A stretch of 64,000 nucleotides of DNA from a virus, in the IMG/VR virus record IMGVR_UViG_3300032307_000652, positions 30,877 through 94,876 of that record; one strand, written 5' to 3'. The notes under the pieces were generated by a model. It did no database searches. It was not told where the DNA came from and saw nothing but the letters and a program-made list of their open reading frames with translations. The translations under genes were made by a program, and so were the position numbers. Shown here piece by piece: positions 5,780-59,381 of the stretch. Position 1 is the first letter of the stretch; every line of letters starts with the position of its first letter.

Positions 5780-8700
5780 ATGGCAACATCAAACAAAGTT
5801 TTCGTCTCGCCGGGTGTATATACATCAGAAAGAGACTTATCATTTGTTTCACAAAGTGTCGGAGTTACTACTTTAGGTATAGTTGGGGAAACCTTGAGAG
5901 GTCCAGCGTTTGAACCTATATTCATTTCAAGCTACGGAGAATTTGAAACTTACTTCGGTAGTACACTTCCTGAAAAATTTGTGAATACACAAATCCCAAA
6001 ATATGAAGCTGCATACATTGCTAAATCATATTTACAACAATCAAATCAACTTTTTGTAACAAGAGTTTTAGGTTTATCAGGTTATGACGCAGGTCCTTCT
6101 TGGTCTATCACAACAGTTGCTAATGTTGATTGTAATACTATTGGAATTACTGGTGGAACTTCATTTAGTTTTGACTTTACGGGTTCAACCGCATCAACAA
6201 CTTCAATACAGTTTACTTCAGCAGTCCCTTCAGTGATTTCAGGTAATACTTATTACTCAAATAACTACACAGCATTTGATGGTACTAATTCATCAATATT
6301 GTCAGATTTAAGAAGTCAGATATCAAGTATTTTATCAACTAATTCATTATCTGCAACATCAGCATATTATTTTGGTCCTGTTTCAGGAACTCAAGTTAAC
6401 GCAAATGTTGTTGCGGGTTTAACTTCCGCAACAAATGTGTTTGATGTTGATAGTATAAGTGCTTCAACAATAGATTATTGTTCAGGTACAAATGACGCTT
6501 GGTTCTATGCTAACTTCGTACCGCCAGCAACAGGTGAGGCGTATTACGGAAACTCTTTCTATACTAATATTAGTTCTTTATCAGGAAGTGCGTTTAGTAC
6601 CGCTGGAAGTTTTACAGGAACTGTTTCAGGTTATTATTATGGATTTTCAGGTTTAACTTATTCAGGTTATAATGATTTAGTAATTGCGACACTTCGTTCA
6701 AGAGGGGTAACTAATTATTCATCTACTCAACATGGTCCTGAATATCAAGTAACAGGAACTTCTGACGTTCAAATGATTTGTACAGGAAGTTACTCTGCGG
6801 TAACTCAAAATCCATTTGCGACATTTGTAATTTCAGGTTTAAGTTACGATTCAACATCATTTAGTTTTGAAACGTCTTTTACACCTTCAAACGCTAACTT
6901 TATAACTAAAGTATTTGGAGTTGAAAACTTCGCTAAAGACCAATCTGAAGTTCCTTTGTTTGTTGAAGAAAGATATTCTACATTGTTATCTTACGGATAT
7001 AATAAAGGATTTATTAGAGGATTAAATTGTTCTTTAATATCTTTACCTGAAGCAAGAAATAATAATATTGATTCAATCGCATATTATTTAGAAAGATATC
7101 AAACTCCACAATCACCATGGGTTGTTTCAGAATTACGTGGTAATTTAGTTTACAGATTATTCAGAGCTGTTACAATTTCTGACGGAAATGATGCGAACGC
7201 TGAAATTAAAATTTCAATCGCAAACATTTCATTTAACAATGGAACATTTGATTTAATTGTTAGAGATTTCTTTGACACAGATTCTAACCCTGTTGTTTTA
7301 GAGAAATTCACTAATTGTAGTATGAATCCTGGTGAAAACAACTACGTAGCTAAAAAAGTTGGTAGTTCAGATGGTGAGTTCGCAATAAAATCAAAATTCA
7401 TTATGGTTGAAATTAACACGGAAGCTCCAGTTGACGCTCTTCCTTGTGGTTTTGAAGGTTTTGAAACTCGTAAATACACAGGTGCTAAATCACCGTTCCA
7501 AATTTATAAAACAAAGTATGACTATCCTGGTGAAGTTATTTACAACCCACCATTTGGAACTACTGCTGGTTTAGATAATGCGGTTCAAAGTTCAGGTGAT
7601 AACATAAGAAGAACTTATTTAGGTATTTCTTCAGCAGTGGCTTTCTCATCAGACTCACCAGGTTATGACCCTGATTTCTTCCAATATAAAGGAATGCCAA
7701 ATCCAATAACAACAACTTGTACTGAGCCAAGTCATGTAAGTTGGGGATTACAAACTAAAGGTTTCCACATGGATAGTGGAGCAACTTCGGTAACAATAGC
7801 AAATGTTTACTCAAATAGTGGACAAACAGCGTTTTATGTTGGAGCTGGGTCATTTAGTTCTGAACCTACTTCACAAACTAGCCCATATTACTTCTTGTAT
7901 TCTCGTAAGTTTACTTTCTTGGTACAAGGTGGTTTTGATGGATGGGATATCTATCGTGAATACAGAACAAATGCTGACCGTTACAGATTAGGTAACACTG
8001 GTTATAAACAAGGAGCGTTAGCGGGTTGTGTACCTTACACAGATGCTACAGGATGGGGAGCGTTTAAACAAATCACAGTTGGTGATAACACAGTTGATTA
8101 CGCAAACACTGACTATTATGCATACCTATTGGGTGTTCAACAATTCGCAAATCCTGAGGTAACAAATATCAATGTGTTAGTAACACCTGGTATTGATTAT
8201 GTTAACAATGGTGATTTAGTAGAACAAGTAATTGATATTGTTGAGAATGACAGAGCGGACTCAATCTACATCTGTACAACTCCTGATTTCAATTTATTAC
8301 AACCTTCAACTTCAATGGATAATTTAATTTACCCACAAGAAGCGGTTGATAACTTGGAAAACACTAATATTGATTCTAACTATACCGCAACTTACTACCC
8401 ATGGGTTCTTACTCGTGATACGGTAAATAACACTCAAATCTATATTCCAGCAACGGCTGAAGCAACAAGAAACTTCGCGTTAACAGATAACATCGCGTTC
8501 CCATGGTTCGCAACTGCTGGTTATACAAGAGGTGTGGTAAATGCGGTTAGAGCTCGTAAGAGATTAACTCAAGAAGATAGAGATACTCTTTACAAAGGAA
8601 GAATTAACCCAATCGCAACTTTCAACGACGTTGGAACTGTTATTTGGGGTAATAAAACTCTTCAAATTAGAGAGTCAGCTCTTGACAGAATTAACGTAAG

Positions 8701-8995
8701 AAGATTGTTATTACAAGCTCGTAAGTTGATTTCAGCAGTAGCCGTAAGATTATTGTTCGAACAAAACGACAACTTAGTAAGACAACAATTCTTAGATTCT
8801 GTTAACCCAATCTTAGATGCGATTCGTAGAGATAGAGGTTTGTATGACTTCAGAGTTACTGTTCAAAACACACCTGAAGACTTAGACGCTAACCAAATGG
8901 TAGGTAAGATTTACATCAAACCAACTAAAGCTCTTGAATTCATTGATATTGAGTTCTTAATCACTCCAACAGGAGCATCGTTTGAAAATATCTAA
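5780..8995 (+). CDS. Contractile tail sheath protein (gp18-like) with large insertions
   Basis: N-terminal FVSPGVYTSERD; C-terminal YYPW, PWFATAGYTRG, INPI, WGNKTL, RINVRRLL, FEQND, IKPTKALEFI. Confidence 0.95.
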   Translation: MATSNKVFVSPGVYTSERDLSFVSQSVGVTTLGIVGETLRGPAFEPIFISSYGEFETYFGSTLPEKFVNTQIPKYEAAYIAKSYLQQSNQLFVTRVLGLSGYDAGPSWSITTVANVDCNTIGITGGTSFSFDFTGSTASTTSIQFTSAVPSVISGNTYYSNNYTAFDGTNSSILSDLRSQISSILSTNSLSATSAYYFGPVSGTQVNANVVAGLTSATNVFDVDSISASTIDYCSGTNDAWFYANFVPPATGEAYYGNSFYTNISSLSGSAFSTAGSFTGTVSGYYYGFSGLTYSGYNDLVIATLRSRGVTNYSSTQHGPEYQVTGTSDVQMICTGSYSAVTQNPFATFVISGLSYDSTSFSFETSFTPSNANFITKVFGVENFAKDQSEVPLFVEERYSTLLSYGYNKGFIRGLNCSLISLPEARNNNIDSIAYYLERYQTPQSPWVVSELRGNLVYRLFRAVTISDGNDANAEIKISIANISFNNGTFDLIVRDFFDTDSNPVVLEKFTNCSMNPGENNYVAKKVGSSDGEFAIKSKFIMVEINTEAPVDALPCGFEGFETRKYTGAKSPFQIYKTKYDYPGEVIYNPPFGTTAGLDNAVQSSGDNIRRTYLGISSAVAFSSDSPGYDPDFFQYKGMPNPITTTCTEPSHVSWGLQTKGFHMDSGATSVTIANVYSNSGQTAFYVGAGSFSSEPTSQTSPYYFLYSRKFTFLVQGGFDGWDIYREYRTNADRYRLGNTGYKQGALAGCVPYTDATGWGAFKQITVGDNTVDYANTDYYAYLLGVQQFANPEVTNINVLVTPGIDYVNNGDLVEQVIDIVENDRADSIYICTTPDFNLLQPSTSMDNLIYPQEAVDNLENTNIDSNYTATYYPWVLTRDTVNNTQIYIPATAEATRNFALTDNIAFPWFATAGYTRGVVNAVRARKRLTQEDRDTLYKGRINPIATFNDVGTVIWGNKTLQIRESALDRINVRRLLLQARKLISAVAVRLLFEQNDNLVRQQFLDSVNPILDAIRRDRGLYDFRVTVQNTPEDLDANQMVGKIYIKPTKALEFIDIEFLITPTGASFENI

Positions 8996-9010
8996 AAAAT
9001 AATATCTAAA

Positions 9011-9040
9011 AAGACCCTCACAGAAATGTGGGGGTTTTTT
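9011..9040 (+). terminator. Intrinsic terminator after the sheath gene
   Basis: aagaccctcac-agaaat-gtggggg followed by a T-run. Confidence 0.8.
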
Positions 9041-9050
9041 ATTTTGTTAA

Positions 9051-13521: not shown

Positions 13522-13559
13522 TAAAATCTGTTTCATTCTATTTATTATAAAAAGATTTG

Positions 13560-16500
13560 ATGCAAGAAAATATTCTTTCTTTTAACGGTTCGGAAAATTT
13601 TAGAAAAACACTTGTTTCTCGAAACTTAAAGCCTTATAAAATTGAGGGTTCATTTTCCAGTGCCGAATCTCAACAAAATTACACAACAAATTTAACGGAT
13701 AGTTCACCTGTTGATACTCCTAATGTTAGTGATAGTATATACGAGGAACCAAAATTAAATACAATTATAAACATTTACGGACCAGCTGGAAATTTTATTG
13801 ACGGTGCCGAATTAGTTAACTCTCTTGATATACCACAACCCCCAAGACCTGTATCTACAGGTGAGGAAATTGGACAAAACGAATATAACCCAAATTTTAC
13901 TAAACTTGATATTATCAATGAAAGTTTTATTGATAACGCTGCGGTTGTAAATAGATATACACCTGAAGGTAGTTATGATGATTTATTCGTGGTTGATGAA
14001 AAAATACTGGCAAAAACATTAGAACAAAGTGGAATTTATGGTGATGGTGTTTTATTCCCAATAAATTTTGTTCAGGGTGATTATACAGTAACAGAAATAT
14101 TAAATAACGACCCTGAATTAATAAGTGATTCTTATATACAAAGAATCGGTGCGGAAAGATTAACATATGCGTTTGAACAAAGAATTGCTCGTGAAATTGA
14201 AAGAAATACAGTTGGCGCGATTAATTTAGGTGTTTTAACAAGTCCGTTTGAAGCAACATTAGTTGCCACAGGACAAGAACCTTTTATACAGAGAAATTAT
14301 ACAATTACAGTTCCTAATGGTGTCATAGATTACGCAGCATATTTTTTACAAAGAGTCGCAGGTTTTTTATTACCCTATTCACCAATCGAAGGAAGTTATT
14401 TTTCAGATGTTGAAAGACAACGAATTAAACCACAACAAACTTTAGGTAATTTAGGTGGTAATCTTTTAAATAGACAAAATCCTTCTATAATTTTTTTACA
14501 AAATACAGGTTCAGGACAAAAAAGTGTATTATTTAATACTATTGCGTATAACAGATATAAACCTGATTATTCATTTAATCTAACTCAACTTGGTACTTTT
14601 CTTTCTGACTTTTTTGAAAACCCTAATTCTATTGGTAATTTATATGTTGGTAGACAAGAATCGGATATTACAAACGTTATATCACCTCCAAATGCTAGTC
14701 CAACTAATGCTTATGGTATACCAACAAGGACACCTGTATACGGACCTGATAAGGTTGGAATACTTTACGAAGGTGACCAAAACTTTCAATTTGGTTTAGC
14801 GGGACAAGATTATAGTAAAAGACCTGTTTTTGACGGTGGGTTTGTTTGGATTTCAGAACTTACGAAGGTTGAGGCCGGAAGAACTGTGGGACAAGATGGT
14901 AGAATTTATGGTAATAATAAAACATTTACACCATTAAGTTCATCTTATCAACAGGTATTATCTACAGGTTATGATTTCAGACCAGGTTCTATATTAGACG
15001 TTACTCAAAGAATAATTGACTCCACACCTGCACAGGGTAAAGATAGATTGGCTCATGTTGGTAACGCAATGAACCAAGTGTCAAAAGTTTTTTGGGATGG
15101 ATATAAGGAGTTAACAAAGGGTTCTAAGGTTAAAAAATATGTTAATGAAAATGGTTCTATTGTTGGAACTGAATATGGTAGAATTTTCTCAAAAGACAGA
15201 CCTTATTATACTTACGGAGATTTACAAGGAACTTACGCCAATACAAGTGGTACGGATACAAATGGTAATATCAGAAGGTATTCATATTCAGTACTAGATA
15301 GTGCTTACAACCTTAATATTGTTCCGTATAAAAATGGAGGAACTTCAACCCAAGGAGGAAGTGTTAAAAAATATATGTTTTCATTAGAAAACTTAGCTTG
15401 GAAATCAACACCCGAATTTAATAACTTACCTGATATTGAGAAGGGCCCAAATGGGGGTAGAATTATGTGGTTTCCACCATATGAATTAACTTTTGGAGAT
15501 AGCTCAAATGCGAACTTTAACGCAACTAATTTTATCGGAAGACCTGAACCAATTTACACATATAACAATACAACAAGACAAGGAGATATTTCGTTTAAAA
15601 TTGTTGTTGACCATCCGTCAGTATTAAACTTAATTGTTAATAGAGAATTAGAAAATCAAAATAGTGATTTAATAAATGGTGTTGTTAATTCATTTTTTGC
15701 GGGATGTAGAAAATACGACATTTATGAATTAGCTAAAAACTTCGGAAGTCTAAGTTTAAACACTATAGAAGACATATATCAGCAAGTTTTAGAAAGTGAC
15801 CAAACATCTGAAGAAGATAAACTTGAGGCTTTAGAATCATTACCACAGGATGAAGGTAATCCTACTGATTCCCAAAGAGTTGGTTTAAGTCAAAATTACA
15901 ATGATTTTGGATTTTATTTTGATGCATATAATGGTATTGAATCAAGCACTGATTACGAAATTTTATACGCTGATTATATAAATGTTGAAGGGTTTTATAA
16001 TGAACAACAACCCCAAGAACCTGTGAGTAGTTTTTTTGAAAAAGTTATAACAGAAAATTATAATAAATTATTATTGTTGAGGGATGAAATTGTTGAAATT
16101 TTAATCGCAGGGGGTGAAGTAAGTTTAGAACTTGTTGGTACTTTGGATGTTGAGACAAATGCTAGTGAATCGACAACATATAATAATGATAGATTATCAT
16201 CAATTAAAATATTTTTTGAAGAATATATTTTCCAAAGTTCACCACTTGGAAAATATGTTCAAAATGGTAAATTTAAAATTACATTAAGTAGTGATATACA
16301 ATCTTCTGCAATTATAAAATCAAGTGAACCTTTTGACTCGTTTGATTGTACTACAATTATTAACAATACTAATACACCATTTTCAATTCAAGCGATGGCT
16401 TGTAGAGGAATGAGAGTAAAAAATATAACGGTTACCGCACAACCTCCTGATAGTGAAAATAGTGGTGCGGTTAATACAAACAGTAATGATACTAATAGTA

Positions 16501-18392: not shown

Positions 18393-18718
18393 TGGCTAAC
18401 GAATATTTAAACAGGTATCAACTTTTTACGGCAAATGACCAACAAAATACTATTCCGTATATTACTATTCCTGCGAAAAACTCCGACAAAAAATATATTT
18501 ATAAACTTGGTGTTTCTCGTTTAGATAAGATATCCCAACTTTATTATGACTCACCTTATTTTGGTTGGTTTATTTTACAATCAAACTCACAATATGGAGG
18601 TTCGGAATTAAACATTCCTGACAATGCCGTTCTTAACATACCCTTCCCTTTAACATCTTCTTTATTAGATTATAAATCAGCTTTAGAGCGTTATTTCTAT
18701 TATTATGGCGAACAATAA
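18392..18718 (+). CDS. LysM-like baseplate protein (gp53/tail-X-like)
   Basis: RLDKISQLYYDSPYFGWFILQSN...LNIP. Confidence 0.75.
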   Translation: MANEYLNRYQLFTANDQQNTIPYITIPAKNSDKKYIYKLGVSRLDKISQLYYDSPYFGWFILQSNSQYGGSELNIPDNAVLNIPFPLTSSLLDYKSALERYFYYYGEQ

Positions 18719-24866: not shown

Positions 24867-24897
24867 TTTTAACATATATTTATAATAAAAAACTATT

Positions 24898-25122: not shown

Positions 25123-25126
25123 AAAA

Positions 25127-25771: not shown

Positions 25772-25779
25772 ATTTCAAA

Positions 25780-26679: not shown

Positions 26680-26685
26680 TTTATA

Positions 26686-45718: not shown

Positions 45719-45769
45719 GAAATTTAAATTTAACTATTTATAAAAATAAACTACTAAAGTAATAAGAAC

Positions 45770-46675: not shown

Positions 46676-49641
46676 TGGCTAATTACACTTGTCCACCACA
46701 AAGACCATCAGGTTCAGGAACATTTTCAAATAACCTTGTCGGTTTACAAATAACCGATGGTGGTGGTTTAACGCAAGGTAATTTTACATTCACAAGTGTT
46801 GTAACTGAAAAAACTAATAGAAACTTTTCGGTTGGGGTATTTTCAGAACCAATATCATTAGAAACTCTTGGTTTTCAAAATACAATACAAGCGAAGTCTA
46901 TTTTTGATAAAAATTTTAAATTATACCCAAATTTTGATGAAACAGATATCACAAATTTTGTTGGTTATGGTTCTTTATCAAAAAGATTTGAGTCTGCGAT
47001 TACAAATATTATAAATTATTTTCCGGCATCTATTGATGTATCTAAATACCGACCAAATTTTACAACAGGTGCGACCGCAACAGGAATAACATACAATGTA
47101 AATGAAAATGAAACAAAACTAATTATTCCATTAGAAACTGTTCGAAATCCCTTTTCAGTTAATTATACTACAACTTCAACACAAACAATTGAGAGTTTAG
47201 AATTTAGTGTTTCAAAGTATAGGGACATGTCTAAAACATTTTTAAGTTATGTTTTAGTTTTAAATTCGAATTATTATCCTCTAACATTTATGGACCCAAG
47301 TACGTCTATAAGTGCTGGAACATTAACAGTTTATGTTCAGGGTAATCCTTTTTCAGGTTTATCAACGTATAATGATTTCTTTTTAATAAGACCAAATGAT
47401 ACAATTGTTAATGAAGTTTTTAATTTAGAATTAGGTGAGGTTGAAGAAATTTTATTGAATAGAATGGTTAAACCTATCTATACTTATGTTGCGACTGTCC
47501 CATCAATTTCTGATTCAGGATTAATTTATAATTCAACACAGACAGTTACTTTTCCATTAGATGGTCCTTGGAACTTAGATATTAGAACAAACGCATTTGT
47601 TAGTTATATCGAAAGTTTACAATTATTAGGTTTAGATTTTGACAATTATAGGACAAATATTATATCTAGATTTTATACAACAAACGCATTTAAAGATTTT
47701 GATACATCAGACCAAAAGGTTGACAAAGTATTAAAGATATATGGAAGAAGTTTTGATGAAACAAAAAAATATGCGGACGCAATTCAACATGTTACCTCTG
47801 TAAATTATAATATTGGTAATGATATTCATTCAGGACTTCTTACAAATTTTGCCGAGACTTTAGGATGGAGAACAAACATATCACCGATAGCTGATTCTGC
47901 TTTTTTAGAATCGGTTTATGGGACTACTGAAAACGCTTTTCCTGCGTATTCTACAAGTCAGACTATGTTGGACTTAAATTACCAATACTATAGAAATTTA
48001 ATATTAAATTCGGCATATTTGTTTAAATCTAAAGGAACAAGAAAGGCGATTGAATTCCTTTTAAATTTTATTGGAACTCCACAGGCTTTACTTGAATTTA
48101 ATGAAAATGTTTATTTGGTTGATTCCAAAGTAAACATGGATAGATTTAATCAATTATATAATAGTATTTCAGGTGGAACTTACACACCACAATTCCCAGC
48201 ATTGGACTCAACAAATGTATACGGGTTTTTAGGTAATACATATACTGGTTACACCACCCAACAAGTTGTTGAAGAGGTAACCACAACTAGAAATGATTAT
48301 CCTGTTGATGATGAAGGATATCCAACCAAACCAACATATAGTAATGATTATTTCTTTCAAAAAGGTGAGGGTTGGATACAATCAACGCCACAACATAGAA
48401 GTCCACAAATTGTTTCTGCTAATACAAATACATTTACAGGACAAAATCTTAGTATACAAACAAGTTTAGAACCTTTTACTTACGGTGAAAAATATTTAGA
48501 AAGGTTTAGAGATTTTCCGTTTATGGAACTTGGATTTTCAATTAAAAAAGAAAATGACAATAAGAAAAGTTGGTATGACCAAACAAGTGATTTACGAAAA
48601 AACACGGACAACTTATTTGATGCTTATTATACCGTTAGTGATGATAGATATGTTTTAAACGTTAAGAATACTGATATATTTTTAAATCCTGCTCAAGCGT
48701 TGGCTTATGATGTTTGGTACATGTCTAATACACAAAATTACCCAATACCATTTACAGGGTTATCTTCACCATATCCACAAACAGGTGGTACGGATTGGAC
48801 CTTTATTAATCCTCAACCACAAATAGAGAACTTCTTCGAGTTTTATAAAACGTTTTGGATGAATATGATTAATGTTAGAAATAGACAAATTTCATCTGAT
48901 GGTAAAACAAGTGGATACCCAACCTTACAATCTTTATTTTGGAAATACCTAACAATGTACCAAGATGTTGGAATACAAAATAATAATTTCACATACCAAA
49001 ATATGATAAACTATATTAATGGTTTAGGTTCATTTTGGATTAATTTGATAGAACAATTTGTACCAGCGACTACTATATGGAATACAGGGACAAAATTTGA
49101 AAATTCTATTTTTCATAGACAAAAGTTTATTTATAGAATGCAGAAAGGATGTCAGATTGTTTTACAAGAAATTGTTGGACCAGTATCAACAGGAACTATC
49201 AGTACTAACAATTGTAATAATGTAACATTCCCACTTCCAATACCGACAATAAATGATTTAGGTTCGGCGGTTAATAATAATTCTGAACAATTGGCGATTC
49301 AGGAAGGATTTTTAAATGGATATACCACAGTGTCCGCATTATATGGGTTTGAATTTACCATAAGTAATTTCAATGGAACAAATTCATATACATTTACTTA
49401 CAACGATTCCGCTTATTATTATACCCCTAATTTATTACCAACTCAAGCACAATGGACTAACATTATAAATCAAGGTATATTGTATTTTGCTAGTTCAGGG
49501 CAACTAAATGATGTGGGAATTCAAATTATTCTTGATTCAAATGATAATGTTATTAACATAGTAACACTATCGTGTGAATTCAGTGATTGGGAAATATCAG
49601 ATTTCTTAATATTAACGCAAGTATCAATTCAAGGACCATAA
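46675..49641 (+). CDS. Baseplate wedge protein (T4 gp7 / P2 gpI-like domain)
   Basis: LLTNFAETLGW...AYLFKSKGTRKAIEFLL; EQFVPA near the C-terminus. Confidence 0.65.
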   Translation: MANYTCPPQRPSGSGTFSNNLVGLQITDGGGLTQGNFTFTSVVTEKTNRNFSVGVFSEPISLETLGFQNTIQAKSIFDKNFKLYPNFDETDITNFVGYGSLSKRFESAITNIINYFPASIDVSKYRPNFTTGATATGITYNVNENETKLIIPLETVRNPFSVNYTTTSTQTIESLEFSVSKYRDMSKTFLSYVLVLNSNYYPLTFMDPSTSISAGTLTVYVQGNPFSGLSTYNDFFLIRPNDTIVNEVFNLELGEVEEILLNRMVKPIYTYVATVPSISDSGLIYNSTQTVTFPLDGPWNLDIRTNAFVSYIESLQLLGLDFDNYRTNIISRFYTTNAFKDFDTSDQKVDKVLKIYGRSFDETKKYADAIQHVTSVNYNIGNDIHSGLLTNFAETLGWRTNISPIADSAFLESVYGTTENAFPAYSTSQTMLDLNYQYYRNLILNSAYLFKSKGTRKAIEFLLNFIGTPQALLEFNENVYLVDSKVNMDRFNQLYNSISGGTYTPQFPALDSTNVYGFLGNTYTGYTTQQVVEEVTTTRNDYPVDDEGYPTKPTYSNDYFFQKGEGWIQSTPQHRSPQIVSANTNTFTGQNLSIQTSLEPFTYGEKYLERFRDFPFMELGFSIKKENDNKKSWYDQTSDLRKNTDNLFDAYYTVSDDRYVLNVKNTDIFLNPAQALAYDVWYMSNTQNYPIPFTGLSSPYPQTGGTDWTFINPQPQIENFFEFYKTFWMNMINVRNRQISSDGKTSGYPTLQSLFWKYLTMYQDVGIQNNNFTYQNMINYINGLGSFWINLIEQFVPATTIWNTGTKFENSIFHRQKFIYRMQKGCQIVLQEIVGPVSTGTISTNNCNNVTFPLPIPTINDLGSAVNNNSEQLAIQEGFLNGYTTVSALYGFEFTISNFNGTNSYTFTYNDSAYYYTPNLLPTQAQWTNIINQGILYFASSGQLNDVGIQIILDSNDNVINIVTLSCEFSDWEISDFLILTQVSIQGP

Positions 49642-51803
49642 TGAGTTACAGTATTACACTTACAGGAGATTGTTCTAACAATAGTAATGGTGCGGTTACA
49701 ATCCAATTTTATACCACCCCACCAACTATTATTAGTTGGACTGACAATAAATTACCTACTCAGACATTTACAGGTGATAGTATCACATATGGTGGGTTAA
49801 GTGCTGACACATATTCTTTTTCGTTCACATCGTCAACGGTTCCGGTAAATAGAATTTATGGGCCGGTAAGTTTTACAGTTTTGTCATCGACAACTGCCAA
49901 TATTACTACAGGGTATCAGTCAAGTTGTTCTTCAAACAACGGTTATTTAACTGTTGATGTTAATTTAGATATTTTTGATACTGAATTATATCCGATACCC
50001 GTTAATATTGATTTGTATAAAGATTATGTATTTTACGAAACAATAAGTGGTAGTAGTAGTCAAACGTCTTTTTTCAATTTAGGGGAAGGGATGTATTACG
50101 CTAATGTTTCAGGAAATGGTTTTTGTGATTGTGAGACTGAATCAGTTGTTATACACCCAAATACGGAGTCTTTAGATTTTGATTTTTATGTTGTTAATAA
50201 CCCTGCTTGTTCAGGTGTTGACGGTAAGATATACGTTACAGGTATAACTGGTACACCTCCATATACATACATTTGGTCACAGAATGTTGGATATACTGGT
50301 GCTACCACATTAGTTACAGGTGTAACACAAGGAACTTATACTTTAACTATTATAGATGGTGCGGGATGTGAATTATCAAAAACTGCGGCAGTTGGTTCGG
50401 CACCATTTATTGGATTAATTAGTTATGAAGTTACACAACCGACATGTTTTACATCTGATGGGGTTTTGGATATTTATTTGTCAGGTGGAACAGGACCTTA
50501 TTTTTATTTATTAAGTAATGGTGATTCTGTTACCTCGTATAGTTCTTCAGTTTCTTTTTCAGGGTTAAGTGCTGGTTTATATAGTTTAAGTGTTACTGAT
50601 GTTGCTCTTTGTACTTTTACATCATTCTTTACATTATCAACACCTAAAGTTTTTACATTTATATCTGCGGATGTTGTTAATTCACAATGTCAATATAACG
50701 GTGGTTCAATTGATGTCACTCTTTTAGGTGGAACTCCACCATATTATTATACTTTAGATAATAATAGTGGAACAACTAATAATGTTTCAAGTTTAATTAC
50801 AACAAATACTTTTTCAGATTTATCATCAGGAACTTATACTCTTACAATATCTGACTCAAGTAGTGCGTGTACTTACTCACAAAATTATACAGTTCTTAAT
50901 GAAACTTCGTTTAATTTTTCATTAAGTGCCCGAAGTAATTATTGTACTTATAACAGTGGGGCAATTCAAGTTGATATAACACCAAATACTACTGCTGATA
51001 CATTCTATACTTATTCTATTTCAAGCGGATTTAGTTCCGCTCCGACAACAGCAACAACATACGTATTTAACAATTTACCACCTGACACATATGATATAAC
51101 AATTTCAGATTCTACAGGATGTACTCAAAATGGTTCAGTGGTAGTTGATTATTTTGCTCCTTATAATTTGGTTCTTTATGGAACTGATTGTGGGACAGGT
51201 AGTGGGGGAACAATAAGTGCGATGATTAATGAAACGGATGGTCCATTTGATTTGACATGGAGTGATAATGTTAATGGTCAGACAGGGGTTTATATTACAG
51301 GTTTAACTGCTGGAACTTATTCTTTGGCGGTTAGTGGAGTGAATAATTGTGAGACAACAAAATACTTTACAATTAGTTGTAATCCTCTGAGAACGGCTAG
51401 TTCAACTTATTCCTATTCAATGGGAACTAAGTCTTATATACCATCTTCATTCTTAAATTTCTCAAATATGTTATCAAAAGGATATTTGAGTTTAACTAAC
51501 GGACACACTGCTTGTAAATTAAATTATGCTAGATTCTTCTGCGATGTTGAATTAAATAATATAACTTATTCTGGTTCATTTTATACCTCTAAAACACTTA
51601 CAAGTGTTCCTACATTAAGTGCGTTTACAAATGGTATAGGTTATTTATTTGATACAATTCCTGATTTAAAATCATATGAGATTAACCTTGATACTAACAC
51701 AATAAATGTTGAATCAGATGTTGTTGGTGGTGTTGAAGTTTATAAGGATGAAGTATTAACAATTACTGTAAGAATAGTTTATAAAATTTCATGTCTAACA
51801 TAA
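49641..51803 (+). CDS. SprB-repeat-like Ig-domain adhesin/fibre protein
   Basis: Repeated P.C....G.I....GGTPPYxY...GL.AG.Y.LTVTD..GC units; start moved to ATG 49641 (TAATG overlap). Confidence 0.7.
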   Translation: MSYSITLTGDCSNNSNGAVTIQFYTTPPTIISWTDNKLPTQTFTGDSITYGGLSADTYSFSFTSSTVPVNRIYGPVSFTVLSSTTANITTGYQSSCSSNNGYLTVDVNLDIFDTELYPIPVNIDLYKDYVFYETISGSSSQTSFFNLGEGMYYANVSGNGFCDCETESVVIHPNTESLDFDFYVVNNPACSGVDGKIYVTGITGTPPYTYIWSQNVGYTGATTLVTGVTQGTYTLTIIDGAGCELSKTAAVGSAPFIGLISYEVTQPTCFTSDGVLDIYLSGGTGPYFYLLSNGDSVTSYSSSVSFSGLSAGLYSLSVTDVALCTFTSFFTLSTPKVFTFISADVVNSQCQYNGGSIDVTLLGGTPPYYYTLDNNSGTTNNVSSLITTNTFSDLSSGTYTLTISDSSSACTYSQNYTVLNETSFNFSLSARSNYCTYNSGAIQVDITPNTTADTFYTYSISSGFSSAPTTATTYVFNNLPPDTYDITISDSTGCTQNGSVVVDYFAPYNLVLYGTDCGTGSGGTISAMINETDGPFDLTWSDNVNGQTGVYITGLTAGTYSLAVSGVNNCETTKYFTISCNPLRTASSTYSYSMGTKSYIPSSFLNFSNMLSKGYLSLTNGHTACKLNYARFFCDVELNNITYSGSFYTSKTLTSVPTLSAFTNGIGYLFDTIPDLKSYEINLDTNTINVESDVVGGVEVYKDEVLTITVRIVYKISCLT

Positions 51804-51827
51804 TCTAACAAAAACTATTTATGTTAG

Positions 51828-52832
51828 ATGAGTTTAGTAACAATTAACAATTTATCGGGTATTCCTCCTTACCAAGTTTCTGTCTGTGATATCTTTCAGT
51901 TCTCTTGTGTTACGGTAACAACAATTCACGATTATATTCCTCCAGCATATTCTTTTTATTTACCAAGTGGTTTTAATAAAGCTCCAAAAGTATTAATTAA
52001 GATTGTCGATTCTACGGGATGTATTTTTACAAGTGAGTATGAATGTTTAACACCAACTCCAACACCAAGTATTACACCAAGTATTACTCCTACAACATCT
52101 TTAACTCCTTCAATAACCCCAACACCAAGTATTACACCATCGTTTACACCAACCCCAAGTATTACGCCATCTATAACCCCGACCCCAAGTATTACTCCGT
52201 CAATTACCCCTACTAATACAGTTACACCAACACCGACAGTTACTCCAACCCTTACACAAACTCCCGAAGTTGGAAGATATGCTTATTTATTTATTGAACC
52301 TTATTCTGGTTCATCATCTATTGGAAGTTATATGAATTCTATGGGTTCATCATTCTATGGATTTACAAATGCTACAAGACCAAGTACTTCAGCATCTACG
52401 TTCCAAACAGATATGCAAAACTATGTTAATTTCTCAGGATGGTCTACAGGTTTATTCCCACAAGTAATAAGACAAACGATACCTCAAACAACGGGAGGAC
52501 TTGATAGTTATGGTAATCCAAGAATTGCATATAATTTCTTAACAACACTTGTTCCTGAAAATTATACTCAAAGTAAGGCTTGGTACACTTGGATAATACC
52601 GACTAATTTAACAAATAACCAATATCAAATTGAGATTGATTTAGGAATTGTTAATCCAAATGTCTTTACAAGTGTAAAGATGGAACCAACAATTTATGCT
52701 AATACATTTATTTATACAGGTAGTACTATTGCAAGAACCACCTATAGGGTTTACACAACATACCCATCAAATACATTTGAATTGGATAACACTTATGACC
52801 TTTATTTTAGAGGAAGTAAGGTTGATATATAA
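51828..52832 (+). CDS. Virion-region protein with a mucin-like Thr-Pro-Ser linker
   Basis: About 70 aa of ([12 protein letters not shown])n; TATTTATG motif at 51816-51823. Confidence 0.65.
52050..52265 (+). repeat. Degenerate coding repeat ([12 protein letters not shown])n
   Basis: Repeated ccaagtattac units. Confidence 0.85.
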
Positions 52833-52841
52833 TTATAGTAA

Positions 52842-53993
52842 ATGAGTTTCCCATATAAAAATCCGATATCGTCTATCCAATTAAATGGAACACAAACTGT
52901 ACCAAGAAACAATACGTATGGTACTACTTTCAGTGTTAACAATACGGGTGGTTATATGGAGGTTTTCAGTTTATCTGACCTTTATTATACAATACCATCA
53001 GGTACAACTGGAAGTATTGAATATTCGGGTAATACCATTCCTATTGAGTTTACAAAAGGAACGGGAGCCGCTTGGTCTCCTGATGTAATTACTTTGGCTT
53101 CTGATAATATTTCATCAGGTAGAAGACGACTTGGTATGTTAGCTTATGTTTATGAGGTTGACCAAGTTTATCAATATCATATTAATGATTACGAGACGTT
53201 ATTTAATGCTGCGACTGCTAGTACGGGATGTGCTCAGGTATCTGATTTTGGAACAACGATAAATAATAAAACTGCTGCGGGTCAGTCGTTTATTAATTCT
53301 TGGACTGCTAACACTATTGAAGATGTTAGTGGGGCGACATATAGTACTGCGGTATGGAGAAAGTTTACAACAGGAACTGGAGGAGGTTCAGGATTTACGT
53401 CAGTTAGAATAAATAATATCAGTCAATTTACATCATCACCATATAGCTATATTAATTTTAGTGGTGTTAATGTTAATATATCATCAGTTGGAAATAATAC
53501 GATTGTATTATCAGCAAATACTGGTGGTGGTTCTTTTAGTGGTGGATTAGAGTATTTTGTGTCCGCATCAACACCTACAGGAACAATTGTAAGTGGAGAT
53601 AGGTGGTTCAATACAAACACAGGTGTTGAATTAGTATGGATTGATGATGGTGATTCACAGCAATGGATTCAACCATTCTCAGTACCAGGGCCTTTATCAC
53701 CTGATGTGGGATATTATACGACAACAGGAATTACAACAGGACAAACTTTAACTTGGGATAAAACATATTGGGGCATAAGTGGTAATAGTAATGTTGATTT
53801 GGTATTACCGTCAGTGGTTGGTAAAGAGGGTTACTATTTAATAATAAAAGATGAAGAGGGGATTTGTGGTACTTATAGAATAAGAATAACACCTTCATCA
53901 GGAACAATTGATAATAATAATTACGTTGATATGAACATAAACTATATGTCCTTAACTTGTATTGTTAGGGACGGAAATTGGTATTTAATATGA
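52842..53993 (+). CDS. Tail fibre-like protein
   Basis: RRRLGMLAYV, GDRWFNTNTG...QQW; C-terminal LVLP...LIIKDE.G....I.P..GTID...WYLI fibre-type module. Confidence 0.6.
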   Translation: MSFPYKNPISSIQLNGTQTVPRNNTYGTTFSVNNTGGYMEVFSLSDLYYTIPSGTTGSIEYSGNTIPIEFTKGTGAAWSPDVITLASDNISSGRRRLGMLAYVYEVDQVYQYHINDYETLFNAATASTGCAQVSDFGTTINNKTAAGQSFINSWTANTIEDVSGATYSTAVWRKFTTGTGGGSGFTSVRINNISQFTSSPYSYINFSGVNVNISSVGNNTIVLSANTGGGSFSGGLEYFVSASTPTGTIVSGDRWFNTNTGVELVWIDDGDSQQWIQPFSVPGPLSPDVGYYTTTGITTGQTLTWDKTYWGISGNSNVDLVLPSVVGKEGYYLIIKDEEGICGTYRIRITPSSGTIDNNNYVDMNINYMSLTCIVRDGNWYLI

Positions 53994-55216
53994 GTTTTAT
54001 ATATAATAATGCGGTAAAATATTCTGATAGTCCAAATATTGATGCGTTTGGTAGATTGAGAGTTGCGGCAGTAACTAATCTATTGGATATTAAACATGTT
54101 TACGACAAAAATCCATTACAAGTTAATGAAGTAACCGCAGGAACTGCAACATCTATTTTTAGTCAGGAATATGCCAGAGTTAGAATGTCAACTTCAGCAA
54201 ATAATGATTTGGTAATTAGGCAATCAAAAACACACCCAATATATCAACCTGGTAAGAGTCAGTTATTTGAGGGAAGCTTTTCAAATTTTCAATTGGAGAC
54301 AAATGTAATAAAAAGAGTGGGATGTTTTACTACAACAACCGCATCAACTTATAATTCAGTTTTTGACGGGTTCTTCTTGGAGAGCAACGGGGTATCAAAT
54401 ACAATAAGTTTCCAACTATGGAGGTCAGGCACAACAATATTTAGCGCATCAACCACAACTTGGGAAACAAATGAGTTTAACCCTTCAAATTTTAATTGGT
54501 CTAACTCTCAATTAATGTTAGTTGATTATCAATGGTTAGGAGTTGGAAGAATGAGATTTGGATTTAATTTATCAGGACAAACAATTTATTTTACCGAACA
54601 TAATTGCTCAAATAATGATAGTTCGGTTTATATGTCATCACCAAACCAGCCTATAAGATATGAGATAAGACAAGTTGGAGCAGGTTCGGGTAGTTTTGAT
54701 ATGATATGTAGTCAGGTTTCTACTGAAGGTGCTTTAAATGGTTTATATAGTACTGTTGGTATTGCCCATTCCTCACAAATTACTCTTAATACTCCTGCAA
54801 CACCTAACGGAACAAAGTACCCATACATTGGGTTTAGATTAAGACCAGGATATGGTTCCGTAGTTTCCGAATTGGTAAGTTCAAATATTGTTGGTGTAAC
54901 TAACGATATATTTTTAATTACCGTTGAGTTTAACCCGACTCTATCCTCAACTCCAACATGGTCAGGTACGACAAATTCTCCGTTTGAATATTCTTTACAG
55001 GACGGAACATTAACAGTATCTAATTCAGGTTATATATTAAATTCAATCATCGCCGATTTAAGTACGTCAACAGCAATTGATTTCGGTACAAGTGATAATC
55101 AAATAAGAGTTGGTACAAATGTAAATGGGACAAGAGATGAAATGTGGATTTGTATAACACCATTAACCGCAGACCCTAAATTAAGGGGAGCAATTAATTT
55201 ATTATATTATTTATAA
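53990..55216 (+). CDS. Beta-sandwich (lectin-like) virion protein
   Basis: DAFGRLRV, YQPGKS, DYQWLGVGRMRFG; ATGA overlap supports start 53990. Confidence 0.55.
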   Translation: MSFIYNNAVKYSDSPNIDAFGRLRVAAVTNLLDIKHVYDKNPLQVNEVTAGTATSIFSQEYARVRMSTSANNDLVIRQSKTHPIYQPGKSQLFEGSFSNFQLETNVIKRVGCFTTTTASTYNSVFDGFFLESNGVSNTISFQLWRSGTTIFSASTTTWETNEFNPSNFNWSNSQLMLVDYQWLGVGRMRFGFNLSGQTIYFTEHNCSNNDSSVYMSSPNQPIRYEIRQVGAGSGSFDMICSQVSTEGALNGLYSTVGIAHSSQITLNTPATPNGTKYPYIGFRLRPGYGSVVSELVSSNIVGVTNDIFLITVEFNPTLSSTPTWSGTTNSPFEYSLQDGTLTVSNSGYILNSIIADLSTSTAIDFGTSDNQIRVGTNVNGTRDEMWICITPLTADPKLRGAINLLYYL

Positions 55217-56775
55217 TGCCAATTAATTTTCCAAATAGTCCATCACCAAATCAACTTTACACCTATGACACTAAAACATGGGAGTGGAATGGTATATATT
55301 GGGAAGTATATTCTGCTCTAACAAGTTACATAACAAGTGCTTACACTGTTGGTGATGGTGTTTCGGACATATCAGGTGTTACAGGAGGAAATATTGCGTT
55401 AAAAAGTTTCAGTGGTGTTAATATAACAATTATTGATACTGGTAGTAAACTTATTTTTAGTGGATATTCAATTACATCAGGTAGTTCAGGAACATCGGGT
55501 TCAAGCGGGTCATCAGGTTTAAGTGGAAGTAGTGGAACATCTGGTTCATCAGGTAGTTCAGGCTCTAGTGGAAGCTCAGGTTCTTCAGGTATATCAGGTA
55601 GTACAGGTTCGAGAGGAACTTCCGGAACTAGCGGAACGTCAGGTTCAAGTGGTTCTAGTGGTACATCGGGTAGTGGAGGGTCTTCAGGAAGTTCAGGTAC
55701 ATCAGGTAGTAGTGGTTCATCAGGAACAAGTGGTTTAGATGGGATAAGTGGGACATCTGGTTCATCAGGGTCAAGTGGTAGTACAGGTTCAAGAGGAACT
55801 AGCGGAACATCAGGTTCAAGTGGTTCTTCAGGAACTAGTGGAAGTTCAGGAACATCAGGTTCATCGGGTAGTTCAGGTTCTGCTGGAACATCGGGAACAG
55901 GATTTACTACAATTACAAGTCCGGGTAGTAATAGAGTATTAACATCTGATGGTACGGCAAACGCTGCGGTAGCTCAGGCTAGGATGACTTTTGATGGGAT
56001 TAAATTAGCGGTAACAGGTGATACGACTATTATTGGTTCCACGACTATTACTGGTAATATAAGTACTACAGGTGTAACCTCTCTTGGTAACGGAACATTT
56101 ACAAAGGCGGGGTCAGCTACTGGTGATGTTATCCTTGATAATAATAGTACAGATACTCCGGGTGTTTTGTTTTATTATGCTAATAATTCAAACTATGGTA
56201 TTGATAGTTTTAATGGGTCATTTGATGTTCTAAGTGGTCAGTTATTACGTTTCACAAATAAATTAAATGAGACTGGCGGAGCTGTAAAGATGGCTATAGA
56301 TACCACAGGTAATGTGGTATTTACCGGATTTATAAAGGCTAATGCGTGGAGAGCAGGTCAGGTAATTAACGATATTATTTTGAGTAATACTGAAGTGACT
56401 ATTAGTACAACAACTATAGCAACTAGTACTTCGGATACTGATTTCTTAACTTACAGTTATACACCATTAAGTTCTACAAGTTATTTAGTAATACATTATC
56501 ACTTAGCATCTTTTGATTTTACTTCTGGTACAGGTAATGATTCATACATATCTAGAATAAAGGTTGATGGTGGTGAAATAACCTATTCAGTACAAAGCAC
56601 GGTTAATGGATTTCGTACAGGTGTTTTATTTCCATTAACGGGTAGATACACTAACTCTAATACTACCGCAAAATCGATAGTAGTTGCATGTCGTAGAAGT
56701 TCTGCGGATGATAATATCACAATAGTAAATTCGGCTACTTCAATGTGGTTGAGAATAACAGAAGTAGCGAGATAA
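55216..56775 (+). CDS. Fibre protein with a Gly-Ser-Ser/Gly-Thr-Ser collagen-periodicity shaft
   Basis: INFPNSP...WEWNG..W N-terminus; about 46 Gly-X-Y triplets; C-terminal beta-sandwich ending ITEVAR. Confidence 0.7.
55477..55902 (+). repeat. (GSS/GTS)n coding repeat, 9-nt period, codon-diversified
   Basis: Gly at every third residue over about 140 aa. Confidence 0.9.
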
Positions 56776-58436
56776 TGCCAATACCACCAAATAAAATAAA
56801 ATACTCAACGTCCTTTCATCCTAATACGATTAAAGTTAAGGATTGGGTTTTAGGTATTAATGAAGGCGCAGAATACGGGCCAACAAGTGTTACAGGATTT
56901 TGGAATTCTATTATACCACCATCAGGTGGTTATACCATGTATGGAAACAAAGCAGTTGCTGGACCGTCCATAGTTGTTGCTCAAAACGACTCAGAACTTA
57001 TTGGGTTTACTCAAGGATTTGCAGGTCAAACATTTAGTACGGCTAACGAAGCGTTAGGATGGTACACAGGACAAACAGGGCTTATTTGTGTTAACCTTGA
57101 TTATCCTGATATTGTAACTGACGGATTAACATTATTACTTGACGCTGGTTATGTTTCATCATACCCAAGAAGTGGTTCACGATGGGATGATTTAAGTTTT
57201 AGTGGTAATAACGGAACATTAATTAATACTCCGACATTTAGTTCAAGTAATAACGGATACCTTACATTTAACGGAAGTAATCAATATGTTAATGTTGCAG
57301 GTACTCCTGTCGGAATAACGGCATATACAAAAAACATTTGGTTTTACCTAAACTCAACTGCTGATAACAACTTATTAAGCAGTGATACGGGTGGACACTT
57401 TATGTATTTTGCTGGTACAAATAAATTATATTGTGGACATTCAAATTGGGGTAATTATGGTGTTTATCCCTCAACAACAAGTTTTAGTAATGGTGTTTGG
57501 TATAACGCATGTCTTACTTTTGACACAACAAATGGTTTCATTCTATATGTTAATGGTGTTCAGGATAGTACATACACCGCTCAAAAAACACCTGTAAGTG
57601 GTAATGGGTCTACAAGGATTGGTTCTTATGGTGTAGGTGGTAATTTATTGAATGGTAGAGTTTCAGTTGCAATGACGTACAATAGAGTATTAAGTTCTAC
57701 AGAGGTATTAAAAAACTTTAACTCGTTTTCATCAAGATTTATTTCACCATCACCAACACCGACAACAACAATTACTCCTACTAGAACACCAACTGTAACA
57801 CCAACTATCACACCAACAAACACTCAAACTCCGACAAATACTCAAACACCTACACCATCAATTACACCAACTAGAACTGTAACACCTACACCATCAATTA
57901 CACCAACAAATACAATTACTCCTACACCGTCAATTACACCAACTAGAACTGTAACACCTACCATATCAATAACCCCTACTAATACTCCAACACCAACAAC
58001 TACCCCAATACCTGTTACAGGTGTTACATTCTCACAAGCGTTTACAGGTGGTACTGCTCCATCGATAGCTATAGAAACTGCTTGGAACACATTCAGAAGC
58101 CGATTAACTGGTACCACATACACTCAATTTGTATGGTCAAGTACTAATGGTAATAGTTTAACTGTAAGTCATCCCACATTAGTACAATCATTAGCAACTT
58201 CGTTAAGAACTGCAACAGTAACAGGTATTACTATTAACAGTGTGGTATGGAGAGTTGGAACAGGATGTGGCACTCCTAAAATCGGTGGTGTTGCGGTAGA
58301 GTTTTCTAACATTGGAAGTTGTAGTGTATCAAGTACATACGCTTTAAGACCAATGATTAATAATGCTAACTGGGGTGGAACTAATGAATATACAGTTAAC
58401 GCGCCGTCACAAACAATAACTTTAACATTCTCATAA
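56775..58436 (+). CDS. LamG/concanavalin-like domain fibre protein with a Thr-Pro stalk
   Basis: [44 protein letters not shown]; about 90-aa TP repeat; start moved to 56775 (TAATG overlap). Confidence 0.75.
57744..58013 (+). repeat. Thr-Pro coding repeat, including three tandem 36-nt units (57849-57956)
   Basis: cctacaccatcaattacaccaactagaactgtaaca; units 1 and 3 differ at one base. Confidence 0.88.
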
Positions 58437-58438
58437 TT

Positions 58439-58573
58439 ATGTATTATATATTAGATTTAGAACAAACCCCACCTGAAAAACTATCAAACGTTGAATTTGA
58501 AAATAAGTTTGATGCTTGTGAATGGATTGAACAAAATGGGGGTATTGTAAAATATACTATAACAGAAATATAA
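58439..58573 (+). CDS. Small 44-aa protein, possible fibre chaperone
   Basis: Not in the ORF track. MYYILDLEQTPPEKLSNVEFENKFDACEWIEQNGGIVKYTITEI fills the gap between two fibre genes. Confidence 0.6.
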   Translation: MYYILDLEQTPPEKLSNVEFENKFDACEWIEQNGGIVKYTITEI

Positions 58574-58574
58574 A

Positions 58575-59381
58575 ATGGCAACATCAAGACCCTTCGCATA
58601 TAACACAGGTTCAACAATATCAGGGACAGAACAAGTCGGAAGTATTGCTATTGGCACACCAACAAGTGGGTTTACATCCACAGGTTTAAGATGGTGGAAT
58701 GGGCCTGATGAAGATTTGGGTTATGTAATTGCTCATACTGTTCCATCAGGAACACAACCAAATCCTGTTGGAGTTCCTGCTTATATTGGTTTTTGGAGAA
58801 CATCAGGTAAGACAGATAATAACTTTATTAGTTTGTCTCAGTACGTATCAAGTTTTACGGGAACACCACAAACATTCGCAAGTGCTTCAGCCGCTAAAAC
58901 ATGGTTAAACTCGGCGGGATATTGGACATCTTATGTTAGTTCATACACATATTATAGATGGCAAATAACCGCAACAAAAACAGCACCACCTGATGGTAAC
59001 TGTACGCAGGCTGCTGAGTTTGTATTCCAAGTAGGAGGTGTCGACCAAAGTATGACGGGTGTTACTGTTACAAATCCTGGTGGTACTAGTCCGGCAAGTG
59101 AAGAGCCGCCAAAATTAGTTGATGGTAATTTGGCTACAAAGGGTTTAGATTTATTGTATGTCTCAAACGGAAATGTTACTAATTTTATATTTCAGTTCTC
59201 AACTGCTAAAACATTTAATGGATATAGATGGGCTACCGCAAATGATGCTGAAAGTAGAGACCCTAAATCATGGACTATTGCGGGTAGTAATGACGGAACA
59301 ACATGGACTACATTACATACGGTTACTAACTTTACAGCTACTGTTGCTCGACAAACTTATCAAACCGCACAAACTTATTAA
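58575..59381 (+). CDS. Virion protein with an F5/8-type C (discoidin/CBM32-like) domain
   Basis: YRWATANDAESRDPKSWTIAGSNDGTTWTTL. Confidence 0.7.
   Translation: MATSRPFAYNTGSTISGTEQVGSIAIGTPTSGFTSTGLRWWNGPDEDLGYVIAHTVPSGTQPNPVGVPAYIGFWRTSGKTDNNFISLSQYVSSFTGTPQTFASASAAKTWLNSAGYWTSYVSSYTYYRWQITATKTAPPDGNCTQAAEFVFQVGGVDQSMTGVTVTNPGGTSPASEEPPKLVDGNLATKGLDLLYVSNGNVTNFIFQFSTAKTFNGYRWATANDAESRDPKSWTIAGSNDGTTWTTLHTVTNFTATVARQTYQTAQTY

Follow-up and report, generated by a model that had tools for sequence, protein, structure and literature searches.

The outward-facing proteins of the virus represented by the IMG/VR record IMGVR_UViG_3300032307_000652 carry a four-residue motif, [S/T]-[G/A]-x-T, far more often than their composition predicts. 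The window analysed here, i.e. the whole stretch of 64,000 nucleotides, comprises bases 30877-94876 of this 94.9 kb viral contig (G+C ~31%), which accounts for ~32% of the genome by CheckV estimate and has the gene content of a distant T4-like myovirus (sheath, baseplate J, ribonucleotide reductase, gp32-like, DnaB-like and FEN proteins). We confirmed that the excess of the motif is real, strong, specific and clade-wide, and that it is explained neither by composition, DNA signals or a shared domain, nor by fibre architecture or a host-type grammar. It is placed on the insertion domains of the tail sheath, on distal tail proteins, on fibres and, mildly, on the capsid protein.

An initial annotation, which had noticed the motif by eye, suggested that it is a modification site served by the phage's own glycosyltransferase (GT) cluster. 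The statistical side of this proposal was borne out by our analysis; the step from motif to glycosylation is our inference, as are the presence of a glycan on any of the proteins, the residue that would bear it and the enzyme that would start the chain. In our preferred reading, to which we assign a probability of roughly 0.4, phi-[S/T]-[G/A]-x-T (phi, a hydrophobic residue) would be a motif of surface proteins that is specific to the lineage, under selection and recognised by a factor encoded in the clade itself. The O-glycosylation machinery of the phage would be the most probable such factor. The probability of a purely structural role is almost as high.

Motif excess and specificity

Expected counts were obtained from composition-preserving shuffles, either of whole proteins or locally within blocks of 12, 20 or 40 residues. 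The 11 surface and distal open reading frames (ORFs) of the contig, encoding sheath, distal-tail and fibre proteins, contain 96 sites, compared with 29.4 expected from local shuffles (3.3x, z ~13). For twelve structural ORFs, the count is 85 against ~30 (z ~10), which is stable across all three block sizes, and whole-protein shuffles give p <= 0.0025 in six ORFs. The enrichment claimed in the initial annotation thus holds against both kinds of shuffle, and all tetrapeptides listed there were found in the sequence, together with further sites: TAST and SAVT in the sheath, TAYT in ORF 44636, SGFT in ORF 52842 and 15 sites in ORF 49587 (ORFs are named by their first base in the window). The inner tail and baseplate proteins of the contig are equally rich in Ser and Thr, yet show no excess (9 sites vs 11.5 expected, 0.8x), and the same applies to their orthologs in G001, a complete relative. 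Non-virion ORFs of the contig contain 3 sites, compared with 7.8 expected (P = 0.05). Within the virion, the excess is restricted to the exposed parts.

The motif is specific in its Thr at position +3. [ST][GA]xT reaches 3.7 times its expectation, compared with 1.03x for [ST][GA]xS, 1.2x for the reversed pattern and 1.3-1.6x when the Thr is shifted to +2, +4 or +5; [ST][ND]xT is depleted. Without a preceding Ser or Thr, the remaining residues lose their excess ([^ST][GA]xT, 0.79x; G.T without upstream S/T, 0.78x; G.T[GA], only 1.75x), and the upstream hydroxyl residue therefore belongs to the motif. In a conditional motif profile, for which 1,700 unique contexts of the motif in the clade were used, position 0 scores 3.1 for S and 2.4 for T, position 1 scores 3.5 for A and 3.2 for G, and position 3 scores 3.0 for T, with all other residues at or below 1.3 and N never accepted there. 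At the x position, R, K, P and H are nearly excluded, and Pro is avoided throughout the neighbourhood of the motif.

Codon usage at the motif positions equals the background, so that the signal lies in the protein and a DNA-level cause is ruled out. As the initial annotation had held, the motif is also distinct from the D-[S/T]-[A/I/L/M/T/V] sequon of the Bacteroidota, the presumed host phylum: the latter occurs 17 times against 16.8 expected (1.0x) and belongs to a periplasmic system, whereas phage proteins stay cytoplasmic. In an unbiased enumeration of triplets, repeats (IGGG..N, TPT) score above the motif; once the repeat patterns TIG, PTT, GGC and TPP are set aside, SA.T and TG.T lead the ranking of triplets with the form ab.c. 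The histogram of distances between sites has isolated bumps at 5, 10 and 17, without a consistent period or solenoid-like periodicity.

Motif-bearing proteins and their relatives

The motif-bearing virion proteins share no mutual homology at the BLASTP level, in agreement with the initial annotation, although some sites of one of them coincide with a repeat consensus (see below). They cover PKD-like, SprB, LamG, discoidin and sheath-insertion domain types, and PDB sequence searches with the motif-rich regions returned nothing useful. Unless stated otherwise, the window features described in this section lie on the + strand. The tail sheath protein (5780..8995; 1071 aa; Pfam Phage_sheath_1 and Phage_sheath_1C) has large outer insertion domains, and all of its 9 sites (3.4 expected) map to these insertions (aa 124-340 and 666-683). 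The conserved core (aa 783-1070), to which its homology to PDB gp18 structures is limited, is free of sites. Sheath orthologs within the clade carry 6-14 sites in their insertion domains, mostly at differing aligned positions, compared with 1-5 sites in outgroup sheaths.

The distal-tail and fibre module (44636-59381) is followed by a GT of family PF11397, a small GT2 and an HtrL/YibB-like protein. It begins with the strongest excess of the window, 8 sites against 1.1 (z ~7), in a distal-tail protein of 360 aa with a PKD-like segment (44636..45718), for which 1553 protein homologs were found. In its family (61 sequences, ~47% identity), the Thr at +3 has a conservation of 0.84, compared with 0.42 for other Thr, and S/T and G/A interchange at fixed columns. 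Ser accounts for 53% of the replacements of this Thr, compared with 30% at other Thr columns, a comparison for which the site definition is partly circular. In an AlphaFold2 (AF2) model of this protein (mean predicted local distance difference test score (pLDDT) 59.5), three sites, at residues 144, 225 and 267, lie in confident segments.

Next come a distal-tail protein of 988 aa (46675..49641; 8 sites vs 2.2, 3 of the 8 kept in orthologs) and an SprB-repeat (Ig-like) protein of 738 aa (49587..51803; Pfam SprB, PF13573, 2e-11, 43.5 bits vs a cut-off of 28) with 15 sites against 3.8. Orthologs of the latter (33% identity) have 12-26 sites each, few of them at shared positions. One of its homologs (33% identity over aa 70-737) is found on a 7 kb contig (L193, CAZSZH010000085.1) in a metagenome-assembled genome (MAG) of an uncultured Flavobacterium; this contig is probably a mis-binned phage fragment and gives a weak hint at a Flavobacterium host. 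A search of genome contigs for bacterial SprB relatives returned only 2 loci, both on phage-like contigs in MAGs. The following T-rich protein of 334 aa (51828..52832) is unenriched (2 vs 0.9).

ORF 52842 (52842..53993) encodes a modular protein of fibre/receptor-binding type (383 aa; 10 sites vs 2.2), of which an AF2 model (mean pLDDT 54.4) is confident only for aa 240-383. Here and at the orthologous position in relatives (L003-L068), the C-terminal ~79 aa are conserved, while unrelated N-terminal modules of 150-1100 aa are swapped, an arrangement corresponding to a host-range cassette with a C-terminal anchor, upstream of a phrog_1645 protein; some homologs have a PF26696 or Peptidase_S74 chaperone domain. 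Most of the swapped N-terminal modules are motif-enriched. In a further fibre of a relative (L009:11239-13452), we found head repeats of the YadA/UspA1 trimeric autotransporter type (PDB 3pr7, E 3e-9), i.e. a bacterial adhesin architecture within a phage fibre. The phrog_1645 protein itself is a virion structural protein of 412 aa (53978..55216; PHROG 9e-42; 6 sites vs 1.3), whose clade-conserved sites are occupied by other residues in the 29%-identical homologs of cyanophage S-RIM8 and Rctr197k (LSGQTI vs IDGQFI or IDGQTY).

The collagen-like tail fibre (55216..56775; Pfam Collagen, 3e-19) has 9 sites against 6.5 (z ~1), no more than its G/S/T composition explains. Its neighbours are a LamG/ConA-like protein of 563 aa with a short T/P linker (56745..58436; Pfam Laminin_G_3, 4e-16; 6 sites vs 2.4) and a 268-aa protein with an F5/8 type C (discoidin) domain (58575..59381; Pfam F5_F8_type_C; 6 sites vs 2.2). 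Upstream of the window, a 1303-aa ORF (contig 22901-26812; L002:4901-8812) contains 17 sites against 3.8.

Two groups of inner proteins served as internal negative controls: the large, S/T-rich inner tail/baseplate proteins of 1611, 108 and 2053 aa (13557..24866, including ORFs 13557 and 18705; 0 vs 2.4 and 4 vs 2.4) and a baseplate-associated protein of 1871 aa (36478..42093; 2 vs 2.0-2.2). In the latter, three strongly hydrophobic segments follow one another (aa ~593-650) and may form a region that inserts into a membrane. Apart from these structural genes, the window encodes, on its - strand, a 501-aa ORF (449-1954) with complete N- and C-terminal Fe/Mn superoxide dismutase domains (aa 36-226) and ~270 further residues of unassigned function, which is unusual for a phage as well as for a superoxide dismutase.

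The excess is shared by the relatives of this phage, which are very abundant in metagenomes. All 66 related IMG/VR loci recovered with ORF 53978 are enriched (1.7-5.1x, with the xS variant near 1), and even the variable fibre ORFs of related loci without a BLAST match to this phage contain 1348 sites, compared with 437 expected. The genomes of two relatives, of 294 and 304 kb, are complete. In G001, the enriched ORFs encode fibres (at 173-196 kb), the sheath and the distal tail (at 251-271 kb), with a mild enrichment of the major capsid protein (4 vs 1.1). For a comparison across genomes, ORFs were split without bias by their S+T content, and the ratios for high-S/T ORFs were 2.5x in the present contig (G000), 2.1x in G001 and 3.2x in G002, the other complete relative, compared with 0.8x in XacN1 (whole genome), 1.0x in T4, 1.2x in Rctr197k, 1.3x in Mel-JY01, 1.4x in Flavobacterium phage immuto and 1.7x in cyanophage S-RIM8. 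A universal property of phage fibres is thus ruled out by T4, XacN1, Mel-JY01, Rctr197k, immuto and LR756508, with S-RIM8 reaching only 1.6-1.7x. A general property of beta-rich secreted proteins of the host family is likewise ruled out, as 40 type IX secretion system (T9SS) cargo proteins from 13 Flavobacteriaceae genomes (~43,000 aa, beta-rich, secreted) contain 147 sites against 141 expected (1.04x); one of them, a 2224-aa bacterial SprB-repeat protein, reaches only 1.4x.

Single fibres outside the clade do contain a moderate surplus of sites, namely in Rctr197k (L073:24238-25755; 11 vs 3.6), S-RIM8 (L069:8634-14054; 20 vs 11.6) and immuto (10 vs 4.7), and contexts such as 'TANTLV.RD..GNFSAGTITA' in the Rctr197k and S-RIM8 fibres hint that the motif is in part a component of fibre repeats with a wide distribution. 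Overall, the excess tracks lineage and not fold. Sites turn over while their density is kept, and sites were gained relative to distant homologs; in sum, the density is maintained, gains are convergent, and no single fold calls for them. In this respect, the motif seems to act like a site for a reader supplied by the clade.

The clade itself is known mostly from metagenomes of fresh water, with Flavobacteriia as possible hosts. It may be identical with the recently described freshwater 'moraphages', whose genomes of 200-307 kb encode four core GT families and for which Bacteroidota are the predicted hosts (PMC12619734; 2025).

Glycosyltransferases and known glycosylation systems

The best candidate for an initiating enzyme is encoded directly beside the putative substrates: a GT60-type glycosyltransferase (59435..60679, + strand), whose gene begins 54 nt downstream of the last ORF of the fibre module. 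It is a clear member of PF11397 ('GlcNAc'; E 2.4e-68, 231.6 bits vs a cut-off of 21), matching profile positions 95-349 in two stretches; by sequence, it has no solved homolog. PF11397 is a family of polypeptide O-GlcNAc transferases, and as far as is known, its characterised GT60 members glycosylate polypeptides. Examples are Gnt1, which acts on Skp1 of Dictyostelium in a cytoplasmic pathway, and the Thr-directed mucin GlcNAc transferase of Trypanosoma cruzi; their acceptors are a hydroxyproline of Skp1 and Thr in a T/P-rich mucin, respectively. While the Thr-directed T. cruzi enzyme would fit a position that accepts only Thr, none of these acceptors is [ST][GA]xT. The GT60 gene is found in at least 225 IMG/VR loci (74-99% identity among the best 80 of 225) and in all three large relatives searched, and over 7000 metagenome proteins are related to it. 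Among GenBank phages, homologs (44-47% identity) were found only in XacN1 (AP018399.1, 222135-223508) and three other jumbo phages of Xanthomonas and Stenotrophomonas; in XacN1, the gene adjoins a carbamoyltransferase and a GT9.

The GT60 gene is followed by a small GT2-like glycosyltransferase (62224..62787, + strand; PF00535, 7e-5, slightly below the cut-off) and by an HtrL/YibB-family protein (62784..63998, + strand; PF09612, 5e-13), which runs off the window end and belongs to a family associated with the lipopolysaccharide core. A second glycan-building block lies at the other end of the contig (625-22853, - strand; L001, L002). Together, the glycan genes at the two contig ends extend over ~27 kb and comprise at least 12 sugar genes besides GT60, with four GT2, three GT4, a GT8, a GT10, a GT2-GT4 fusion, a GDP-mannose 4,6-dehydratase (gmd), an RfbH/DegT-like protein and an SDR protein; a PhoH gene sits amid them. 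No transmembrane segment was predicted in any ORF of the cluster by a hydrophobic-segment test (19 residues, Kyte-Doolittle value >= 1.6; a crude predictor, applied to ~32% of the genome), so that no flippase, polymerase or ligase is evident; by the same crude test, the cluster likewise lacks an initiating phosphotransferase, the remaining hallmark of an undecaprenyl phosphate-dependent polysaccharide or O-antigen pathway. Judging from these genes, the cluster would fit a stepwise addition of sugars to a soluble cytoplasmic acceptor rather than the export of a lipid-linked polymer.

Should the motif mark sites of sugar attachment, the following course can be envisaged. Late in infection, a soluble initiating GT, for which ORF 59435-60679 is the best candidate, would put a first sugar on the invariant Thr, which it would recognise by the small residue at -2 and the hydroxyl residue at -3 relative to this Thr. 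The GDP-sugar pathway and the many soluble enzymes of the ~27 kb cluster (GT2, GT4, GT8 and GT10) would lengthen this sugar, and the particle would be sugar-coated upon release.

Our literature searches returned no description of this motif or of any phage glycosylation sequon, but several known systems resemble the one proposed here. In Clostridioides difficile, SgtA attaches O-GlcNAc to the Thr of G-x-T (GPT) repeats in BclA3, a collagen-like fibre on the spore surface (PMC7157674). The likeness lies in a soluble GT-A type enzyme encoded beside its fibre substrate, in the Thr acceptor with a Gly two residues before it, and in the extension of the glycan by other GTs. The phage motif differs in that it needs a Ser or Thr three residues upstream, accepts Ala as readily as Gly, and occurs in ordinary beta-rich domains instead of a collagen triple helix; accordingly, the collagen-like fibre of the phage is without excess. 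The candidate enzyme of the phage is of GT60 type; small GT2-like ORFs are present as well.

In mycobacteriophages, phage GTs encoded near structural genes modify virion proteins; in the system as cited in PMC12619734 (Freeman et al. 2023), two GTs are involved, capsid and tail-tube subunits bear the glycans on their C-terminal extensions, and the account given there mentions no defined sequon. GT genes adjoin structural genes in the present clade as well, but here the cluster extends over ~27 kb and the four-residue motif is scattered across sheath, tail and fibre proteins.

Giant viruses synthesize glycans in the cytoplasm, independently of the host, with many GTs and nucleotide-sugar enzymes, and chlorovirus capsids bear N-linked glycans at non-canonical sequons. 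Their glycosylation is autonomous, as exemplified by the chlorovirus capsid and the mimivirus fibril glycans (PMC4691112, PMC7019647). With the system proposed here, they have virus-encoded machinery, virus-specific acceptor sites and surface-protein targets in common; they differ in their eukaryotic hosts, in the N-linkage of the chlorovirus glycans and in the absence of any sequence relationship to the present motif.

Sugar attachment, packing unit or other reader

Several observations weigh against sugar attachment, and many of them would be expected from a purely structural grammar. On that account, phi-[S/T]-[G/A]-x-T-phi would be a beta-strand/bulge/turn packing unit of thin, mostly trimeric beta-structures, spread by descent and module shuffling without any modification, which we regard as only slightly less likely than sugar attachment. 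The flanks of the motif are hydrophobic, with L, W, I or V at -1 and Y, A, F or I at +4, and Pro and charged residues are avoided. The three confidently modelled sites of ORF 44636 lie within beta-strands, and such a placement, combined with hydrophobic flanks, would suit a packing motif better than a loop of the kind classically O-glycosylated. The family of this protein keeps 5 of the 8 sites in at least 78% of its members, within conserved blocks. Several sites of ORF 49587 belong to the SprB-repeat consensus (VTGLTG..PY and LTAGTY; contains TGLT, SGGT and TAGT). Furthermore, tandem arrays in the N-terminal parts of relatives' fibres, e.g. 'ylplSGGTvTGGTifqSGLTANTlSATT', resemble shaft repeats; a tblastn search with this tandem-motif shaft yielded nothing usable. 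Motifs similar to 'LPLSGGTMTG' may be frequent among tail fibres, but the literature on fibre motifs of the 'GGTMTG' type was searched with no usable result. The weaker excess in single fibres of unrelated phages and the extensive exchange of modules among relatives are also in keeping with a structural origin. What speaks against it is that the sites are missing from homologous folds beyond the clade, with bacterial SprB and beta-rich T9SS proteins at 1.0-1.4x, and that the motif extends across several unrelated domain types. Moreover, G and A are equal at position 1, which argues against a Gly turn with a positive phi angle, Thr at +3 is replaced mainly by Ser and not by Val or Ile, sites turn over while their density is kept, and solenoid-like periodicity is absent.

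Further points against our preferred reading, sugar attachment by the phage's own enzymes, concern the GTs. XacN1 carries a 47%-identical GT60, yet the motif is at expectation throughout its genome (132 vs 144, 0.92x). Thr/Pro-rich, 'mucin-like' linkers between fibre domains (contig ORF 22901-26812; window 56745-58436), with TP[TS] at 3.3x over local shuffles, offer a GT60-type enzyme a more canonical target and match the known acceptors better. No clade member without GTs was found, either among three large relatives or in a GT60-based locus search, which returned only the same clade, so that the co-occurrence of motif and GTs is without contrast. Relatives also encode a ThyA-family protein (G001:C1:31500-32291; G002:C1:269134-270246), either a synthase or a pyrimidine hydroxymethylase, and part of the GT set may therefore serve to glycosylate DNA. 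Lastly, avoidance of the motif in cytoplasmic proteins, had it held, would favour a motif read by an enzyme. The initial annotation had described the motif as apparently rare in the replication enzymes and GTs, and non-virion proteins do lack the excess; avoidance, at which the counts in G000 (see above) and G001 (26 vs 35) had hinted, was lost under the unbiased S/T-based split of three genomes (0.61x, 1.15x, 0.74x).

The reader of the motif could also be another, non-GT factor encoded by the clade, such as a fibre assembly chaperone, a docking decoration or cement protein, or an enzyme for the phosphorylation or acylation of Ser/Thr. A lineage-specific, fold-independent and surface-restricted pattern would suit any trans-acting reader, and the need for two hydroxyl positions agrees with such a role; still, we found no candidate enzyme or chaperone, and glycan-building enzymes form the only large, conserved and adjacent set, which makes this explanation rather unlikely. 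We consider it less likely again that the motif forms flat Thr surfaces that order water or bind ice or polysaccharides. The ice-binding protein (IBP) of Flavobacterium frigoris, FfIBP, has a near-identical T-A/G-X-T/N motif on beta-strands of its DUF3494 fold, where it forms a flat ice-binding face (PMC5334608), and the freshwater origin of most of the clade and its possible Flavobacteriia hosts (PMC12619734; the weak L193 hint) would suit such a function. However, membership in the ice-binding domains is rejected: Pfam searches of the motif-rich ORFs gave no DUF3494 match, no match to DUF3494/Ice_binding (PF11999) was found in G000, G001 or G002 at E <= 0.1, true Flavobacteriaceae IBP domains reach only 1.65x, rung-like spacing is missing, and the phage motif needs S/T at position 0 and never has N at +3. 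A chance or compositional artefact of S-, T- and G-rich proteins, finally, was tested and rejected. Pairwise terms do carry part of the signal ([ST][GA] 1.36x, [GA]xT 1.55x), but z is ~10 even with 12-residue block shuffles, the xS and shifted variants stay far below the motif, and equally S/T-rich proteins of the same phage, of other phages and of bacteria are without excess.

In its boldest and more tentative form, our preferred reading of the motif as a sugar-attachment site would mean that these freshwater jumbo phages of ~300 kb, which may be 'moraphages' with likely Bacteroidota hosts, run an autonomous cytoplasmic O-glycosylation system with a sequon of its own, phi-[S/T]-[G/A]-x-T, that arose convergently in every outward-facing virion protein. 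Such a system would be a counterpart to that of the giant viruses and would provide the first defined sequon of a phage-encoded glycosylation system. If the motif is such a sequon, the attachment sites of phage-encoded glycosylation could be read straight from sequence, so that for thousands of uncultured phages from aquatic habitats virion glycosylation could be predicted and put to the test, and the motif would supply a simple peptide substrate for assigning functions to the GT60-type enzyme and the 27 kb set of GTs. A sequon would also suggest that glycan coating of phages is common in nature and evolves like viral glycan shields, with a density that is kept and positions that turn over; the coat may protect the particle from proteases, grazers or defence lectins or help it adhere to mucus-like or polysaccharide matrices. 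As a structural element, by contrast, the motif would represent an unusually sharp, lineage-wide rule for the construction of fibre and surface domains, and thereby a useful marker of the virion surface proteins of this clade.

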